DNA from: Escherichia phage anhysbys
DNA: 64,000 nucleotides
Sequence record: NC_052656.1
Strand: one strand, 5' to 3'
The notes beneath the pieces are model-generated. The model did not search any database and had not been told where the DNA came from. It was given only the letters and a program-made list of their open reading frames with translations. Shown here one piece after another: positions 6,473 to 32,979 of the stretch. Made by a program: the position numbers and the translations under genes. Numbering within the stretch: position 1 is the stretch's first letter; each line of letters begins with the position of its first letter.

Positions 6473-6723
6473 TGTTAAGCGTTAAGCCTAAGATGATCAG
6501 TGAAGACCAGAAAGATTTCATTTACAAGTGTGGACGAATCTGGAGAGAGTATACCAAGGGTAACGAGGTCGTGGTGGTTACTGAACACCAGATTGAAATC
6601 TCTGATCTTTTCGGTGATTATTTGCAAGTGATCAAATTAGGCATTGACAGAGGTTTGGTGCAGGTGTTAACATTATCCCAAGTTGAAGCAGAACACTTAG
6701 ACAAAATCATTGTCGAGTTCTAA
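6472..6723 (+). CDS. hypothetical protein
   Basis: ORF track 83 aa. Confidence 0.5.
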   Translation: MLSVKPKMISEDQKDFIYKCGRIWREYTKGNEVVVVTEHQIEISDLFGDYLQVIKLGIDRGLVQVLTLSQVEAEHLDKIIVEF

Positions 6724-6910: not shown

Positions 6911-7075
6911 ATGATTTTAAACTTCATCATCAACTTGTGTTTGACATTGGGATTACTCTGTGCAATAGTATCCCCTCTGGTTGGTGAATATTGTTCTGAA
7001 CTGGCGATGTTTATAGTTCTTGGTGCGGCTATTGCTAATATGTTTGTCGCTGCGATTTGTATGTTGTGGGAATAG
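6911..7075 (+). CDS. small hydrophobic (membrane) protein (~54 aa)
   Basis: Own translation MILNFIINLCLTLGLLCAIVSPLVGEYCSELAMFIVLGAAIANMF...; AGGAGAG RBS. Confidence 0.4.
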   Translation: MILNFIINLCLTLGLLCAIVSPLVGEYCSELAMFIVLGAAIANMFVAAICMLWE

Positions 7076-7086
7076 GAGGGAAGTTT

Positions 7087-7443
7087 ATGAAAAAACTAAT
7101 CTTAGCCACATTGCTGGCTACCGTAAGCTTCACCACTTACGCTCAAAAATTTGTAGCAGTTAAAACGGATATTGGTAAAGATGTTGTGATCACAGGCAAC
7201 AAATTTTACTATACACCTGGAAATGGTGTTCTGGAAGAGTGCCAAGATGTTGAGGCATATACAGGAAAAGAAGATAACACGGAACGTCCTTTTTATTCGA
7301 TTATAGCTACTTGCAAAAATGAAATAGTAGCTATTAAACAATACAAAGATGCCCCTGGAGGAGAATACTTGTTAGTCAAGAATATTAAGAGTGAAAAAAC
7401 TGCAAAGTTTACAGTAATTATTTTAAAAGGAGAAACGTTCTAA
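7087..7443 (+). CDS. putative secreted protein
   Basis: Track frame; start refined to MKKLILATLLATVSFTTYAQ (signal peptide) after AGGAGGG. Confidence 0.6.
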   Translation: MKKLILATLLATVSFTTYAQKFVAVKTDIGKDVVITGNKFYYTPGNGVLEECQDVEAYTGKEDNTERPFYSIIATCKNEIVAIKQYKDAPGGEYLLVKNIKSEKTAKFTVIILKGETF

Positions 7444-8582
7444 TGAAATACACTATTTTTGGAGATGTAGCTGTTGTAAATAAGGAATATGGCGTTGAAG
7501 CTAATAAACTTCCTGCTGGAGTTTGGGTTGTCAACTGCGATCCGCACGGTAACTACTCTTTAGTGCGTGGCGAAAGTTTCTCTCTTCCGAACACTCTTTA
7601 TGGGGAAACTAAAGATCGCGCCGCACATGTTATTAAAACATTTGCTCGTCGTAGTAAAGAAGGTAAAAATACTGGGGTGTTACTGACAGGGACAAAGGGC
7701 AGTGGTAAGACGATGTTAGCTAAACTGATTAGCATGTCCCTAATGTCCACAGAAGGTTTAGGTATTCCAACCATTTTGGTGACACAGCCTTACACAGATG
7801 CTGGATTCTTAGAATTTATGAGTAAAATTACAGATCGTGCTGTTGTTTTATTTGACGAATTTGATAAAGTGTACGCTAAGAAAGAAGATCAGGAAGCACT
7901 GTTGACCTTGTTGGATGGAACAGGAAGTGGGAATAAACTTTACATCCTAACTAAAAATAGTGGTTATATCTCGGAATATTTTGTAAACCGTCCTAGTCGT
8001 ATCTATTATAGTTTCAATTACGATAAACTGTCTAGTGAAACTATGTTAGATTACTTGGATAAGAACTTGGTAAATAAAAAACACGTAGATAACTTCCAAC
8101 GTTTATGGGATGTTAGCACAGAGTTGTCTTTCGATGTTATTCAAGGTATTGTAGAAGAATTGAATTTCTATCCAAAAATGACTTTTAAAGAATGTCTTGA
8201 AATGATGGGTATTTCTTTAGGCAACGATGCTAAATGGAATGTGGCTTCTATCGTAGCTAATGGCAAAACCTTGAAGGTGAATTGGATCAATAACTGGCAC
8301 GACTTCACCCCTACTAAGTTTTTGTCGGGTGCTTGTTCCCTGAACATATATCTGCAAAGCTTGAAAGATGATGAAGTGGAAGCAATGGAAACCAACAGTT
8401 ATGTTATCCTGGATGAAGATGGTGATCCACATATTGATCTATGTGCAACTGCTGATGGTCTAACTTGTGATCTGATTGAAGGTGGTAAGATTCTGGTGAT
8501 GAGCACCACACCAGGAAACACTCTGCGAGTGGTACTGGAGCCTGTAACACAACGTTCCACCACACTGGGTAGCGTGTTCTAA
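7443..8582 (+). CDS. AAA+/P-loop ATPase
   Basis: Walker A GTKGSGKT, Walker B-like VVLFDEFDK; 379 aa. Confidence 0.7.
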   Translation: MKYTIFGDVAVVNKEYGVEANKLPAGVWVVNCDPHGNYSLVRGESFSLPNTLYGETKDRAAHVIKTFARRSKEGKNTGVLLTGTKGSGKTMLAKLISMSLMSTEGLGIPTILVTQPYTDAGFLEFMSKITDRAVVLFDEFDKVYAKKEDQEALLTLLDGTGSGNKLYILTKNSGYISEYFVNRPSRIYYSFNYDKLSSETMLDYLDKNLVNKKHVDNFQRLWDVSTELSFDVIQGIVEELNFYPKMTFKECLEMMGISLGNDAKWNVASIVANGKTLKVNWINNWHDFTPTKFLSGACSLNIYLQSLKDDEVEAMETNSYVILDEDGDPHIDLCATADGLTCDLIEGGKILVMSTTPGNTLRVVLEPVTQRSTTLGSVF

Positions 8583-8587
8583 TAAAG

Positions 8588-8612
8588 ATGCCCCACAAGG
8601 GGCATTTCTTAT
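8588..8612 (+). terminator. rho-independent terminator-like hairpin
   Basis: GATGCCCC-ACAA-GGGGCATT then TCTTAT, after ATPase gene. Confidence 0.5.
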
Positions 8613-8623
8613 AGGATGAAATC

Positions 8624-9832
8624 ATGAGTAAAGCTAAAAGTTGGGAAGAATATAAAGCAGAATGCGAGATCATAGCTCTCTCTAAAGGATATAAAATTTT
8701 AGGCCATAAAGAATGGAAAGGGTGTGAGACTAAACTCCTGATAGAATGTCCTGTGCACGGTGTATGGGATACTTGTAAAATAGCTAACTTTAAAAGTGGG
8801 AAGTCTTGCCCTTCTTGTGGTGAATTAACAAAAAGGGAGAAGAGAACGAAGAGCAGGGAGGACCAAGAGAAAGAGTGTGAAGAAGAAGCGTTAAAAAGAG
8901 GTTGGCGCTTCTTGGGTATCTACGGAGAATGGCTCAAAGCTAAAAAGACACGAGTAATCTTACGTTGTGACAGGGGTCACGAGTTTAACACATCTACCAT
9001 AGACAACTTTAAGAATAATAAACAAGGTTGTCCAGTTTGTCGTTTAGAGGATATAGGTAAACACCATAAGCTTTCAGACGATCAGCACATACAAGATTTC
9101 ATGCGTACGGGTGTGTTTCCCGAAGGCACTACCTTCACTAATACAGGGGAAAGAGCTGGGAGGAGCGAAATACTTTGGAGTGTATTTTGCCCTATCTGTG
9201 CTATAGATGAGTTTTCCAAAGCTGGGGTAGGAACGGGATATTTTATCGGTAGAGGTAGTTCATTAAAACAGGGTATGCGCCCTTGTCGTTGTTCTGCCAG
9301 TTACAAATATTCTGAAGAAGAGATGACATTTAGAGCAAAAAGTGACGTAGAACGTAGAGGGTACGTGTGGTTGGGGTGGATCGGGAAAGCTTCTATACTT
9401 GGGGATTTTGAATATGGTTGCAAGGATCATGGGAAACATGTGTGTAGTGCTAATAATTGGTTAAATAAGGGGTGTGGTTGCCCTGGTTGTGCAGGTATGA
9501 ATCAACAACAAGCCTACATTAATTATATTTACGATGAGCAAGATATTATCTGTGCACTGAAGTTTGGTATTGCTAATAATAGTGATCGCCGTATCAAAGA
9601 ACAAAATAGTCGTAATGTGTTTACTATGAAACAGAACCAAGTGTGGCACTTCCCTACTGTGAAGCAATGCAAAGATGCAGAGAAGCGTTGTAAACGTGTC
9701 CTTAACACGGAAGCGGTGAGCAAATATGCTATGCCAGATGGCTACACAGAAACAGTAGAGTTATCTTGCATGGCCTCAATACAAAACATTTATAAACTTT
9801 ATGGTGGAATATTACAGGAGGAAACATGTTAG
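8624..9832 (+). CDS. cysteine-rich zinc-ribbon repeat protein with C-terminal GIY-YIG-like segment
   Basis: Repeated C..HG...CP.CG / C.RGHEF...CPVCR modules; C-terminal YINYIYDEQD ... FGIANNSDRR resembles GIY / YIG+Arg motifs. Confidence 0.6.
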   Translation: MSKAKSWEEYKAECEIIALSKGYKILGHKEWKGCETKLLIECPVHGVWDTCKIANFKSGKSCPSCGELTKREKRTKSREDQEKECEEEALKRGWRFLGIYGEWLKAKKTRVILRCDRGHEFNTSTIDNFKNNKQGCPVCRLEDIGKHHKLSDDQHIQDFMRTGVFPEGTTFTNTGERAGRSEILWSVFCPICAIDEFSKAGVGTGYFIGRGSSLKQGMRPCRCSASYKYSEEEMTFRAKSDVERRGYVWLGWIGKASILGDFEYGCKDHGKHVCSANNWLNKGCGCPGCAGMNQQQAYINYIYDEQDIICALKFGIANNSDRRIKEQNSRNVFTMKQNQVWHFPTVKQCKDAEKRCKRVLNTEAVSKYAMPDGYTETVELSCMASIQNIYKLYGGILQEETC

Positions 9833-10191
9833 TTGACGTTCAAATTATGCGCAACGAAAGAATGGACTTCTTTGAAGCAGTAGAGAAACATCTGATTCGA
9901 TGGGACTATGAATTTGTTCCTGCTGGATGTGGACCAGTAGAGCATTTAGCGGAAGACGATGATGTATACATGATCATTCGTCAAGTGTACCAGACAGACC
10001 AGTGTGAAGAAACTCCTGAACTAATTTTGTTTGAGTGCAAAGATCTTGCAAAATATTTTGACTATGGCGGAAAAGAGGGTCATAATCTCTCCAGATACAA
10101 TAAACGTCTACTTATCTTAGACTACATGCGGAACAACAAACACAAACTCATCGACGCAGACGCAGTTTATGGCTACTGGTGGATGGATTAA
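9826..10191 (+). CDS. hypothetical protein
   Basis: ORF track 121 aa. Confidence 0.55.
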   Translation: MLVDVQIMRNERMDFFEAVEKHLIRWDYEFVPAGCGPVEHLAEDDDVYMIIRQVYQTDQCEETPELILFECKDLAKYFDYGGKEGHNLSRYNKRLLILDYMRNNKHKLIDADAVYGYWWMD

Positions 10192-10204
10192 CAAAGGAGA
10201 AACT

Positions 10205-10393
10205 ATGGCACGTTTAGCAGATAACCCTGTATTCTACCCCGTTCTTGATCTTTATGATGAATTGACATATGTTGTGGAGCGGTATAATTACAATGAAGAC
10301 CTCTTGGAGACAAACCTTAAAGTAGTTCTGATGAAAGCCTATCAGCAAGGGCAACGTGAAATTTTGGAGAGTATGAAAAATGCGAATAACTGA
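10205..10393 (+). CDS. hypothetical protein
   Basis: Track frame; start refined to MARLADNP after AAAGGAG. Confidence 0.5.
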   Translation: MARLADNPVFYPVLDLYDELTYVVERYNYNEDLLETNLKVVLMKAYQQGQREILESMKNANN

Positions 10394-10922
10394 TGAATAT
10401 GTATTCTTCTTTTCACATAAAGATGTGTTTAGTAATTGGTATATTGCACCCTTTACAGAAACCGAACCAGGTTACAATCAGACATTTAATTGTGTCGAAC
10501 AATACATGATGTGGCGTAAAGCTTTGCTTTTTAATGATCACAACACTGCACAGGCTATTCTGACTCATAGTTTGATACGGAAAGATGAGAAGATCCAAGC
10601 TTATTACAAACGTATGGGTAGGGCAGTGTCAGATTTTGATAACAACGTATGGGAAGAGAACCGTGAGCGTATTGTTATGCGAGGTTTATGCTTGAAATAT
10701 GTACAGAATCCAGATTTGTATGCAGACTTACACCTTTACCAATACAAAACGTTTGTTGAAGCAAGTCCTTACGATAAGGTTTACGGTATTGGAATGGGAA
10801 TGTATGAACCAGGGGTGCTAAATCCGGTCAACTGGAAAGGGCAAAATCTTTTAGGTAAATATCATAACAAACTGATCGAAATACTTTTCCCAGACAAAAT
10901 ACCGCAGAGACGATATTTGTGA
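10380..10922 (+). CDS. NADAR-domain (YbiA-like) protein
   Basis: FSN(W/F), CVEQYMMWRKA, MGR, Y(D/G)IGMG and LLGKYH.. blocks align with E. coli YbiA family from memory. Confidence 0.75.
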   Translation: MRITDEYVFFFSHKDVFSNWYIAPFTETEPGYNQTFNCVEQYMMWRKALLFNDHNTAQAILTHSLIRKDEKIQAYYKRMGRAVSDFDNNVWEENRERIVMRGLCLKYVQNPDLYADLHLYQYKTFVEASPYDKVYGIGMGMYEPGVLNPVNWKGQNLLGKYHNKLIEILFPDKIPQRRYL

Positions 10923-10976
10923 TATTTTAACTTTTTTCATTTTTAGAACAAAGGCGTCACTTTGTAGCACAGAAAT

Positions 10977-11012
10977 AAGGCTCCTACAGCACCGTAGAGA
11001 GCCTATTATTTT
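10977..11012 (+). terminator. rho-independent terminator
   Basis: AGGCTCCTAC...GTAGAGAGCCT stem then ATTATTTT, after NADAR gene. Confidence 0.55.
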
Positions 11013-11166
11013 GTCCTATACAAACCCTTGTCTTTTTCAGTTTGCATCACTAGGATTCGATCTGAGTGGGTTCCTGAAGGTCTGCCAATAAGATTAAAGG
11101 TTATCTCAAATTCCCATTACCTATTATCTCAAAAATCCCTCAAATTATTTAAACTTTTTAAGAATT

Positions 11167-11212
11167 TACAAAAGTGAAAGTTGAAAACCAAAATTTAAAG
11201 TTTAGGAAAATT
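11167..11212 (+). repeat. AT-rich ~45-bp direct repeat, copy 1
   Basis: TTACAAAAGTGAAAGTTGAAAACCAAAATTTAAAGTTTAGGAAAATT. Confidence 0.6.
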
Positions 11213-11303
11213 ATCTTAAAATGTTAGATACAAAACAAAACTCAAAAGTCAAGGAAAATTTTAAAAATTTTGCGCGCCCACAGTATTTAAAGTTTTTTTG
11301 CTT

Positions 11304-11350
11304 TTACAAAAATGAAAGTACAAAAGCAAAATTTAAAGTTTACAAAAATT
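11304..11350 (+). repeat. AT-rich ~45-bp direct repeat, copy 2
   Basis: TTACAAAAATGAAAGTACAAAAGCAAAATTTAAAGTTTACAAAAATT. Confidence 0.6.
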
Positions 11351-11389
11351 TATGCAGATGGGGATGAGAAGAGTTCTCATGTGGAAATG

Positions 11390-11470
11390 CAAATGATAAT
11401 GATTCGCATTTAGGTTTATAAATGAGAATGATTCTTATTTAATAAAGTAAATGATAATCATTCTCATTTA
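11390..11470 (+). promoter_or_regulatory. three tandem Fur-box-like 21-bp palindromic sites
   Basis: AAATGATAATGATTCGCATTT / AAATGAGAATGATTCTTATTT / AAATGATAATCATTCTCATTT, about 30 bp apart. Confidence 0.5.
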
Positions 11471-11727
11471 GAGAATGACGCGCAGGGGCGGTGTTTGTCT
11501 CGCGCTCCCGTGTCCCCTCGCCATGTAATAAGAATAACAGATCCAACCAGGAAAGCAAGCGATTATTTTATCTTTACATTTCTTTACGAATATATAGCGC
11601 CCAGCCTACCGGCGATCAACCTTCCAACCAGTGCCCCTGGTATGTTAGCCCCGCCTTTACGCCGTGGGGTGGCGCTTCCTCTTCTGTATGTAAAACAGTA
11701 TAAGCCCTATCCCTGGGCTTGTCAAGA

Positions 11728-11994
11728 TTATTTTTTGTTTTCTTGCCAGGTCAGGACACCTAGCCAAAAATGAATATCACCTTTTCCCCAATGTGGTATA
11801 TTGCTTTCTTTCCCACCTTCACGCGCCCAGGTAAAACCGCCCGTGTAACTTTGTAATTGATAACTATCCTCGACCTTATAATCTGATAGGTTGAGAACGG
11901 TTTCAACCTTTAAGCCCGTTGCGCTTGCTACCTGGTGTACCGTGCCGCCTTGCCAGCCCAATGAGTGCATAAGGTGTAATGTAGTAGTTGTCAT
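11728..11994 (-). CDS. hypothetical protein in GC-rich island (doubtful)
   Basis: ORF track 88 aa; atypical GC-rich composition; isolated on minus strand. Confidence 0.25.
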   Translation of the reverse strand: MTTTTLHLMHSLGWQGGTVHQVASATGLKVETVLNLSDYKVEDSYQLQSYTGGFTWAREGGKESNIPHWGKGDIHFWLGVLTWQENKK

Positions 11995-12104
11995 GGTATC
12001 GCCCTTTCTTTGTTGTGCGCCCTGGTTGGCGCGGTAGAAAGATGATAGCCTTTTCCTTTATATATAGCAAGCAAAAAGAAAATAAAAAAGATTGAAAAAG
12101 TGGT

Positions 12105-12132
12105 TGACGTTCCTCACCTGGTAGCGTAGTAT
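12105..12132 (+). promoter_or_regulatory. candidate promoter for first gene of plus array
   Basis: TTGACG-16-TAGTAT; ~130 nt leader to ATG 12268. Confidence 0.4.
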
Positions 12133-12267
12133 TCATCTTGTCGAGGGGGGCGCGGCACAACGACAATAAACAACAGGAGGGCGCAATGTAGGACGGGCAA
12201 AGGTGAGGATCTCCATAATCCACCGTCAACCAACAAAAAACATCATTCATCACCTGGAGTTAAAATC

Positions 12268-32194: not shown

Positions 32195-32511
32195 GCGAAG
32201 AGCTATTAACATTTTACCGCACGTATTTGGCATGGTTGGAAGCTGGTGCTCCTGAAGGTGAACCGTTCACCCGTTGCACAGGTTTGTGCACGAACCTCTA
32301 TGATTTTTACGACATAGGAGAAAGCGAACGATACGAACCTGTACTGGATGAAATGCATGAGCAGTTCTACCTCAAAGGTTTGGTTATGGTGTTGCCTTTC
32401 AACAGTAATTTTGGAAAGTACACCTTAGAAGCGGAAAAAGGCCGTTGTCATTTGAATGTGGATCGTGTGAACTGGGTAAAAGAACGTGTAGCAGAAGAAA
32501 TAATTGGTTGA
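32191..32511 (+). CDS. FY-WL/GLC/WVKDR family protein, paralog 5
   Basis: Track frame; FYRTYLAWLEAGAPEGEPF, TGLCTNL, RVNWVKERV; closest to paralog 4. Confidence 0.65.
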   Translation: MSEELLTFYRTYLAWLEAGAPEGEPFTRCTGLCTNLYDFYDIGESERYEPVLDEMHEQFYLKGLVMVLPFNSNFGKYTLEAEKGRCHLNVDRVNWVKERVAEEIIG

Positions 32512-32565
32512 CAGAAGGATCTGTCTTTGTCATAATCGTCTCATCGAAACAGAGAGGAGAAAATC

Positions 32566-32979
32566 ATGAAAAAGTTTATTTGCACCCGTTCCACTAACAG
32601 TGATATCCTTGTAGGTAAAGTTATCAAAGGAGAACTCTTCCATGCAAACGGTAAGAAATATATTCTGCTGAAAGATTCTTTCAACGGGGAATATCCGCGC
32701 TGCACTTTCTTCAATTACAATACTCCATTTGCTTTAGAAGGAGATGCTTGGGACTGGGCTGAACTTCATCCTTGTTGTGAGGAAGAAGAATCTATGTTCT
32801 TAGGTTTAAACGTTTACCGTGTAGATTACACCATGTGCGGAGCGGAATATTCTGTTCGCGTAGAAGCCGAATCCAAACTACAAGCACCTTTCAAGGCGGG
32901 ATTGACTTTGGGTCATTGTTTGGCAAACATTGAAGATGTTGTGATCCAAAGAGTTGTTTTAGAGAAAGAGGCTATTTGA
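32566..32979 (+). CDS. hypothetical protein
   Basis: ORF track 137 aa; GAGAGGAG RBS. Confidence 0.55.
   Translation: MKKFICTRSTNSDILVGKVIKGELFHANGKKYILLKDSFNGEYPRCTFFNYNTPFALEGDAWDWAELHPCCEEEESMFLGLNVYRVDYTMCGAEYSVRVEAESKLQAPFKAGLTLGHCLANIEDVVIQRVVLEKEAI

Follow-up and report, generated by a model that had tools for sequence, protein, structure and literature searches.

The gene at positions 8624-9832 of the Escherichia phage anhysbys sequence NC_052656.1 probably encodes a site-specific DNA endonuclease that is free-standing and belongs to the CapR-T5orf172 family, a group of putative homing enzymes of phages; we assign this reading a probability of roughly 0.65. The window considered here is the full stretch of 64,000 nucleotides (nt) of this phage, and all coordinates refer to it. 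The predicted protein of 402 amino acids (aa) carries a series of cysteine modules followed by a C-terminal motif segment, a combination that is far above chance expectation. Judged by its sequence, it belongs to a family that has been described before: it has an N-terminal CapR domain, homology to the ICP1 protein gp130, a conserved arginine and glutamate, and genomic signatures of the mobility type. A preliminary description of the locus, drawn from the letters without database searches, had reported an AAA+ ATPase followed by the 402-aa protein within 7443-9832; the two open reading frames (ORFs) are exactly as it stated, on the plus strand at 7443-8582 and 8624-9832.

The satellite protein CapR binds DNA via a Cys-dependent zinc finger, and is related to the N-terminal domains of ICP1 proteins, gp130 included, that end in a T5orf172 domain. 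gp130 is named among the putative homing endonuclease genes with CapR homology (Netter et al. 2021, PMC8096241). Barth et al. (2023, PMC10448857) catalogued 229 phage T5orf172 putative homing endonuclease genes and found that, at the end away from the nuclease, 87% carry zinc fingers of the CapR, DUF723 or DUF4397 type. These fingers are often repeated and shuffled, and 'boundaries of genetic exchange' are where the genes occur. For one T5orf172 protein, Odn, DNA cleavage has been shown in vitro, and mutation of the Glu that corresponds to E75 of I-TevI inactivates it (Barth et al. 2021, PMC8263062).

Tandem zinc modules

Cysteine makes up 6.0% of the 402-aa protein (24 residues), the highest proportion among the 32 ORFs of at least 150 aa in the window, for which the median is 1.5%. 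The protein contains exactly four CxxC motifs (aa 62, 136, 189 and 286), one per zinc module. Modules 1, 2 and 4 have the pattern C-x(2-3)-H...CxxC and are true internal repeats, with 38% identity between modules 1 and 2 (E 1e-12) and a weaker match between modules 2 and 4 (E 5.5e-4). Module 3 stands apart as a subtype with the pattern CxxC...CxC, the canonical CapR signature described in PMC8096241. The Pfam CapR family matches the protein in four stretches (E 3e-23; 82.2 bits against a cut-off of 24.2), and weak additional matches are made by DUF723 and DUF4379. In alignments of 40 and 50 homologous sequences, C286 and C289 are invariant or nearly so.

A predicted nuclease domain at the C-terminus

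The assignment of the C-terminal segment to the GIY-YIG nuclease superfamily, and to its T5orf172 subfamily, is supported by homology and by a modelled fold. MUG113 and T5orf172 are both families of the GIY-YIG clan. Within the protein itself, aa 301-367 give sub-threshold Pfam matches to MUG113 (E 0.0067) and T5orf172 (E 0.015), and when homologues are scanned singly, MUG113 is detected in 22 of 40 and T5orf172 in 21 of 40 (E up to 0.1, best 1.6e-5). Precomputed calls of either family are present in none of the 77 database homologues that were found, in all of which the nuclease domain is C-terminal. The phi92-type homologue, which occupies the same locus in Justusliebigvirus, clears the Pfam T5orf172 cut-off, as does the domain of ICP1 gp130. 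The record of gp130 is annotated 'tcgB, putative homing endonuclease', and BLASTP aligns it with both halves of the protein: the nuclease domain at 42% identity over 122 aa (E 8e-24) and CapR module 2 at 33% identity over 75 aa (E 2e-8). In addition, phrog_681 ('endonuclease') matches at 1.4e-73, and an AlphaFold2 (AF2) model of aa 286-402 has the beta-beta-alpha-beta-alpha-alpha order of GIY-YIG domains (mean confidence, pLDDT, 92.5).

Across 40 non-redundant homologue domains, Y298, K313, G315, R323, E353, G373, E376 and T377 are invariant; Y298, K313, G315, R323 and E376 are invariant across 40-50 homologues in two alignments. From motif order and place in the modelled fold, we infer that R323 and E376 are equivalent to R27 and E75 of I-TevI, and E376 to E180 of Odn.

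The preliminary description had recognised at least four zinc-ribbon-type repeats, which are real, but with a uniform C..C...C..C ligand pattern that gives way to three modules of one kind and one of another. It had also singled out the strings YINYIYDEQD (aa 298-307) and FGIANNSDRR (aa 314-323) as GIY-YIG-like; Y298, G315 and R323 fall inside them and K313 directly precedes the second. That likeness is borne out by the family profiles, the modelled fold, the homology to gp130 and the invariance of R323 and E376. It had been made to depend on a profile match and on the catalytic Arg, Glu and Asn. T5orf172 and MUG113 match about half of the homologues, but Pfam GIY-YIG (PF01541) matches neither the protein nor any of the 40 scanned; likewise, the Arg and Glu are in place, but no equivalent of the Asn was located. 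Finally, the order of domains had been called inverted. The DNA-binding modules are indeed N-terminal and the nuclease C-terminal, but this is the published norm of the family rather than an anomaly (PMC8096241, PMC10448857).

Allelic mosaicism at the locus

Window positions 7000-10300 match 69 records of phAPEC8-like phages (Phapecoctavirus, Stephanstirmvirinae, ~150 kb), and are 98% identical to Escherichia phages ukendt and ESCO5. The 402-aa allele occurs in only six of these 69 records. Other alleles encode proteins of 326-332 aa with three CapR modules (326 aa in SKA64), 394-409 aa with four (394 aa in phAPEC8) or 486 aa with five (as in ESCO13). The 486-aa form is present in about 20 records and is 33% identical to the 402-aa protein and colinear with it over its full length. 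Identity to the window is 95-99% through the adjoining ATPase gene, ends at 8585, 3 nt past the stop codon of that gene (8612 in the ESCO13 class), and resumes at 9053, 9281 or 9803, within or at the end of the endonuclease gene, so that the variable segment is enclosed by flanks of 95-99% identity. Along the gene, the other alleles are unalignable with the window at the nucleotide level in modules 1-2, 63-72% identical in modules 3-4 where aligned, 82-93% identical in the nuclease domain, and 97-100% identical in the last 30 nt and the downstream gene. These last 30 nt (9803-9832) are 93-100% conserved even where the whole endonuclease ORF has been swapped, because they hold the ribosome-binding site (RBS) and start codon of the overlapping downstream gene.

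All 11 of the alleles examined are intact ORFs. Among seven gap-free alleles, the nuclease domain has a ratio of nonsynonymous to synonymous substitution rates (dN/dS) of 0.11-0.28, with dS up to 0.67, far above the level implied by the flanks; values for ESCO13, PsgM04F and Paula were dropped, as indels put their last 113 codons out of register. Intact, selected alleles with high dS between near-identical flanks indicate that the alleles are old, functional, and brought in by recombination. The locus is a recombination hot spot, and its allele pattern agrees with what has been reported of T5orf172 genes, namely shuffling of repeats and domains and a position at 'boundaries of genetic exchange' (PMC10448857).

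Beyond these phages, homologues of the nuclease in four distant phage contigs have unrelated neighbours: DNA ligase and small ORFs, baseplate and lysozyme genes, or runs of small ORFs. Homing endonuclease genes typically adjoin conserved genes. Together, the unrelated contexts in distant phages, the sharp identity breakpoints, the alleles with three, four or five modules, and the dS of 0.67 in the nuclease domain constitute a mobility-type signature. No paralogue or decayed copy of the gene was found in the 64-kb window by tblastn or by hidden Markov models (HMMs) of the nuclease domain, each module and the whole family; a marginal match at 32409-32594 was dismissed, as its frame looks non-coding.

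One record, that of phage vB_EcoM_EP57 (OR544956.1), appears to offer an 'empty site', which was rejected because the region has several other gaps and the junction removes the ATPase stop codon. This record is 130.7 kb long versus ~150 kb in relatives, has many tiny ORFs in this neighbourhood, and lacks the segments equivalent to 6480-6603, 8573-9812, 10325-10687 and 11002-11124. It has the look of a gapped or collapsed assembly and should not be taken to show that a gene is absent.

A second, small mosaic segment lies at 10192-10379. Relatives have two forms of it, either 72% or 97-100% identical to the window, and which form occurs shows no linkage with the endonuclease allele. The three phages sharing the 402-aa allele carry the 72% form, which makes the window phage a recombinant whose breakpoint lies near 10192.

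How the gene might spread, and what else it might do

By analogy with the Cys-dependent binding of PLE CapR, the four tandem zinc-coordinating CapR-type modules (aa 1-292) would read an extended DNA site. They would thereby deliver the GIY-YIG-fold nuclease domain (aa 293-402), which may cut nearby DNA by means of Arg323 and a metal held by Glu376, the model for this step being the in vitro cleavage by the T5orf172 domain of ICP1 Odn and its loss upon mutation of the equivalent Glu. In a mixed infection with a relative carrying a different allele, the break would then be repaired from the endonuclease-carrying genome, copying the gene together with its nearby flanks. This last step would account for the observed mosaic; homing itself we infer.

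A number of results weigh against a homing endonuclease. The 402-aa protein stays below the Pfam cut-offs for both T5orf172 (16.2-18.7 bits, cut-off 20) and MUG113 (17.4-20.1 bits, cut-off 22.3). A Foldseek search of the nuclease model against the PDB gave nothing significant, and neither phmmer with the whole protein nor hmmsearch with the domain profile gave anything relevant among PDB sequences. An hhalign comparison of the domain profile with an approximate sequence of I-TevI 1-97 returned a probability of 0.2 and no alignment, so that the equivalences with I-TevI residues remain presumptive. The first-strand Tyr is present as Y298 in 'AYI', but the second motif reads KFG (Lys-Phe-Gly replacing Tyr-Ile-Gly), and the canonical second Tyr is thus gone. 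The Asn of the GIY-YIG active site has no located equivalent in the 40-homologue alignment, and the position that is Asn in most homologues is Cys382 in this allele. The distribution of the gene is not sporadic: some allele is present at the locus in 68 of the 69 Phapecoctavirus records and in Justusliebigvirus. As the gene is essentially fixed, there is no clean comparison of occupied and empty sites from which a target could be deduced. Lastly, homing has not been demonstrated experimentally for any CapR-T5orf172 gene, according to Barth et al. (PMC10448857).

The sub-threshold Pfam scores, the missing YIG Tyr and the unlocated Asn would also suit a DNA-binding protein with a dead nuclease domain, that is, a CapR-like regulator retaining an inactive T5orf172 fold, and domestication to a pure repressor has a precedent in the CapR family (PMC8096241). 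Such a protein is nonetheless improbable. The Arg and Glu that are important in Odn and I-TevI are invariant here, as are Y298 and G315; the low dN/dS extends over the entire nuclease domain; and CapR lost its nuclease domain outright and kept no dead copy (PMC8096241).

The leading alternative, which we consider possible but clearly less probable than a homing endonuclease, is a domesticated nuclease or regulator that is maintained for its benefit to the phage. Candidate roles are the exclusion of markers from co-infecting relatives, the cleavage of a satellite or another parasite in the manner of ICP1 Odn, and sequence-specific repression like that by CapR and I-TevI; the variable zinc modules would then track changing targets. 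Fixation at a single locus in two genera with every allele intact speaks for such a role, as does strong purifying selection on the nuclease domain while the DNA-binding half is replaced wholesale. The family also provides precedents, Odn being a proven anti-satellite nuclease (PMC8263062) and CapR a proven repressor (PMC8096241). However, these phages have no known target, satellite or regulated promoter, PADLOC and NCBIfam scans of the endonuclease gave no matches, and the same replacement of alleles is predicted by repeated re-invasion of selfish alleles with new specificities, as discussed in PMC10448857. Fixation with intact, selected alleles is therefore compatible with either selfish re-invasion or a beneficial role, and the two are not exclusive; a selfish, homing gene is ranked first and a beneficial one second.

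A more speculative proposal, and a somewhat less likely one again, is that the endonuclease became fixed at this locus in Stephanstirmvirinae as a weapon against related phages or a parasite, and would thus be more than a selfish passenger. The tandem zinc modules would form a swappable specificity cassette, and the classes with three, four and five modules would recognise and exclude each other's ATPase-to-gp121 junction. If true, this would be a natural, programmable 'allele-versus-allele' exclusion system under balancing selection.

The adjoining AAA+ ATPase

The upstream gene encodes a P-loop AAA+ ATPase of 379 aa, an identification already made in the preliminary description and confirmed by matches to Pfam AAA (8.7e-7, above the gathering score) and phrog_2376 'ATPase' (4e-111). 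Its model comprises an N-terminal beta domain (aa 1-42), an AAA core and lid (aa 56-255), and a C-terminal beta-rich domain (aa 264-368, ~105 aa); neither the N- nor the C-terminal domain matches a Pfam family. The protein resembles protein-remodelling AAA+ proteins of the classical AAA clade (Bcs1, Trip13, NSF) rather than nuclease-coupled ATPases. It is widespread, with 393 phage records and 735 database homologues on contigs of 80-370 kb, and its family spans Vequintavirus-like, jumbo, Felix-like and Herelleviridae-like phages.

The preliminary description had suggested that ATPase and nuclease might act as a pair in host DNA degradation, recombination or anti-defence, and their adjacency is conserved throughout Stephanstirmvirinae, where the order ATPase - endonuclease - NADAR is kept (Phapecoctavirus, Justusliebigvirus, PaulScherrer). 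The conservation ends at that subfamily, seen from either gene. None of the four distant nuclease homologues has an adjoining AAA gene, and the ATPase homologues of Aeromonas phage LAh_9, Cronobacter phage GAP32 and Enterococcus phage EF24C have nothing nuclease-like downstream. Between the two genes, a GC-rich hairpin followed by a T-run stands directly 3' of the ATPase stop codon in 10 of 10 alleles, and terminators are annotated at this position in the record of phage Paula. The hairpin has two unrelated sequence types: ATGCCCC-NCAA-GGGGCAT in the window (8586-8623 spacer), ESCO13 and PsgM04F, and AAACCCGC-TTCG-GCGGGTTT in the remaining alleles, Justusliebigvirus included; its type is not strictly coupled to the endonuclease allele class. 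Moreover, the nuclease allele is exchanged completely beside an ATPase whose protein sequence stays at 99-100% identity in 61 records, and the two therefore do not co-evolve. PADLOC gave no relevant matches for an ATPase-nuclease system. A functional pair was rejected on the strength of these absences of co-occurrence, the intervening hairpin, the allele swaps and the protein-remodelling type of the ATPase. It is now very improbable and largely refuted, the pairing being coincidental synteny: the ATPase is an independent, widely conserved phage gene that the endonuclease gene merely adjoins.

Features of the locus and its surroundings

The features of the locus are collected in Table 1.

Table 1. 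Coordinates of the endonuclease gene, its predicted domains and its immediate neighbours in the window
Feature	Position	Strand	Basis or remark
AAA+ ATPase gene, 379 aa	7443-8582	+	ORF list; neighbour of the endonuclease gene, separate from it
Terminator-like GC-rich hairpin ATGCCCC-acaa-GGGGCAT, then TTCTTAT	8588-8605	+	Between ATPase stop codon and endonuclease start codon
Endonuclease RBS AGGA, 7 nt 5' of ATG	8613-8616	+	Read from sequence
CapR-T5orf172 putative homing endonuclease gene, 402 aa + stop codon	8624-9832	+	Pfam CapR, phrog_681, 77 homologues
Zinc module 1, aa 1-70, proposed ligands C42, H45, C62, C65	8624-8833	+	CxxC motif, repeat alignment to module 2
Zinc module 2, aa 74-144, proposed ligands C115, H119, C136, C139	8843-9055	+	CxxC motif; aligns to ICP1 gp130 CapR module
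Zinc module 3, aa 150-226, CxxC...CxC: C189, C192, C221, C223	9071-9301	+	Best Pfam CapR stretch, aa 157-224
Zinc module 4, aa 227-292, proposed ligands C266, H269, C286, C289	9302-9499	+	CxxC motif, repeat alignment
Predicted T5orf172-type GIY-YIG nuclease domain, aa 293-402	9500-9829	+	Homologue alignment, Pfam on homologues, AF2 model, gp130 homology
Final 30 nt of endonuclease gene, with downstream gene's RBS AGGAGG (9813-9818) and ATG (9826)	9803-9832	+	
Downstream gene, 121 aa, phrog_24465, right-hand conserved flank	9826-10191	+	Overlaps endonuclease gene by 7 nt

Two genes downstream of the endonuclease, a NADAR-domain gene lies on the plus strand at 10380-10922 (Pfam NADAR 1.8e-35, TIGR02464 2.4e-32), which PADLOC assigns to the candidate defence family PDC-M42C (2e-35). 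RefSeq calls its ESCO5 orthologue 'GTP cyclohydrolase II', a name that looks carried over from RibA-NADAR fusion proteins. NADAR enzymes reverse the ADP-ribosylation of DNA bases, and on this basis the gene could be an anti-defence gene.

It is followed by an AT-rich, ORF-poor stretch of 1.3 kb (10923-12260), in the equivalent of which relatives' records annotate promoters, a terminator and a repeat region. Repeats in this stretch comprise a direct repeat of 72 nt (11141 and 11279), a set of three ~50-nt units at 11364-11471 with a spacing of 29 nt, and an inverted repeat of 23 nt (TAAATGAGAATGATTCTTATTTA / TAAATGATAATCATTCTCATTTA; 11419-11470). The core of the inverted repeat, AATGATAATCATT, presumably matches the E. 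coli Fur-box consensus. Rfam and tRNA scans found nothing in the endonuclease region or in this stretch. Over the whole window (1-64000), cumulative GC skew has its minimum near 4 kb and its maximum near 42 kb and then declines, turns that probably reflect switches in transcription direction between gene blocks.

Significance

What is new here is an additional family member, whose architecture had been published before and whose mosaic signature is tidy but expected. The main value of the finding lies in annotation and in interpreting phage mosaicism. The gene at 8624-9832 can be named a CapR-T5orf172 putative homing endonuclease, in place of 'hypothetical protein' or 'endonuclease', and the adjoining AAA+ ATPase should not be interpreted as its partner. 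The locus also offers a clean natural allele series, in which a single conserved nuclease scaffold bears three, four or five zinc modules in E. coli phages that are otherwise nearly identical. Such a series, in a host amenable to experiment, could serve tests of T5orf172 homing and of how tandem CapR modules encode DNA specificity. In addition, phAPEC8-like phages are used in therapy cocktails, and a nuclease that drives recombination among relatives infecting the same cell bears on the stability of such cocktails.

Comparison with known systems

The resemblance to SLX1 and At-HIGLE is one of fold only, with sequence identity of just 13-14%. These eukaryotic nucleases are structure-specific and act in repair; their RING/PHD finger is C-terminal, and SLX4 is their partner. 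I-TevI and the T4 Seg proteins share with the 402-aa protein a modular, 'beads on a string' organisation with a zinc finger, and home in phage co-infections as free-standing or intron-borne genes. However, their nuclease is N-terminal, the reverse order, and their DNA-binding domains are of the helix-turn-helix or NUMOD type instead of CapR repeats; sequence-profile similarity to I-TevI is undetectable by hhalign with the approximate I-TevI sequence.

PLE CapR, the capsid-operon repressor, has a zinc-finger DNA-binding domain with the CxxC...CxC pattern found here in module 3, and its DNA binding is Cys-dependent. Unlike the 402-aa protein, it has no nuclease domain, acts as a transcriptional repressor, and is encoded by a satellite rather than a phage. 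ICP1 Odn (gp88, origin-directed nuclease) has a C-terminal T5orf172 domain with conserved catalytic Arg and Glu and a specificity set by its N-terminal DNA-binding domain, and is the sole member with nuclease activity shown in vitro. Its DNA-binding domain, in contrast, is RepA_N-like instead of CapR, and its target is a satellite replication origin.

ICP1 gp130 (tcgB) and the other ICP1 CapR-T5orf172 genes are alike in combining N-terminal CapR-type zinc modules, often repeated, with a C-terminal T5orf172 domain. They too are free-standing, lie beside a conserved gene, and have intragenic repeats and domain shuffling between alleles. The gene described here differs in belonging to a separate phage lineage with E. 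coli as host, in having four modules, three of them with C-x(2-3)-H...CxxC ligands, and in encoding a domain that, unlike that of gp130, falls slightly under the Pfam T5orf172 cut-off. Whereas ICP1 carries many paralogues per genome, the phages considered here have one fixed locus with many alleles.

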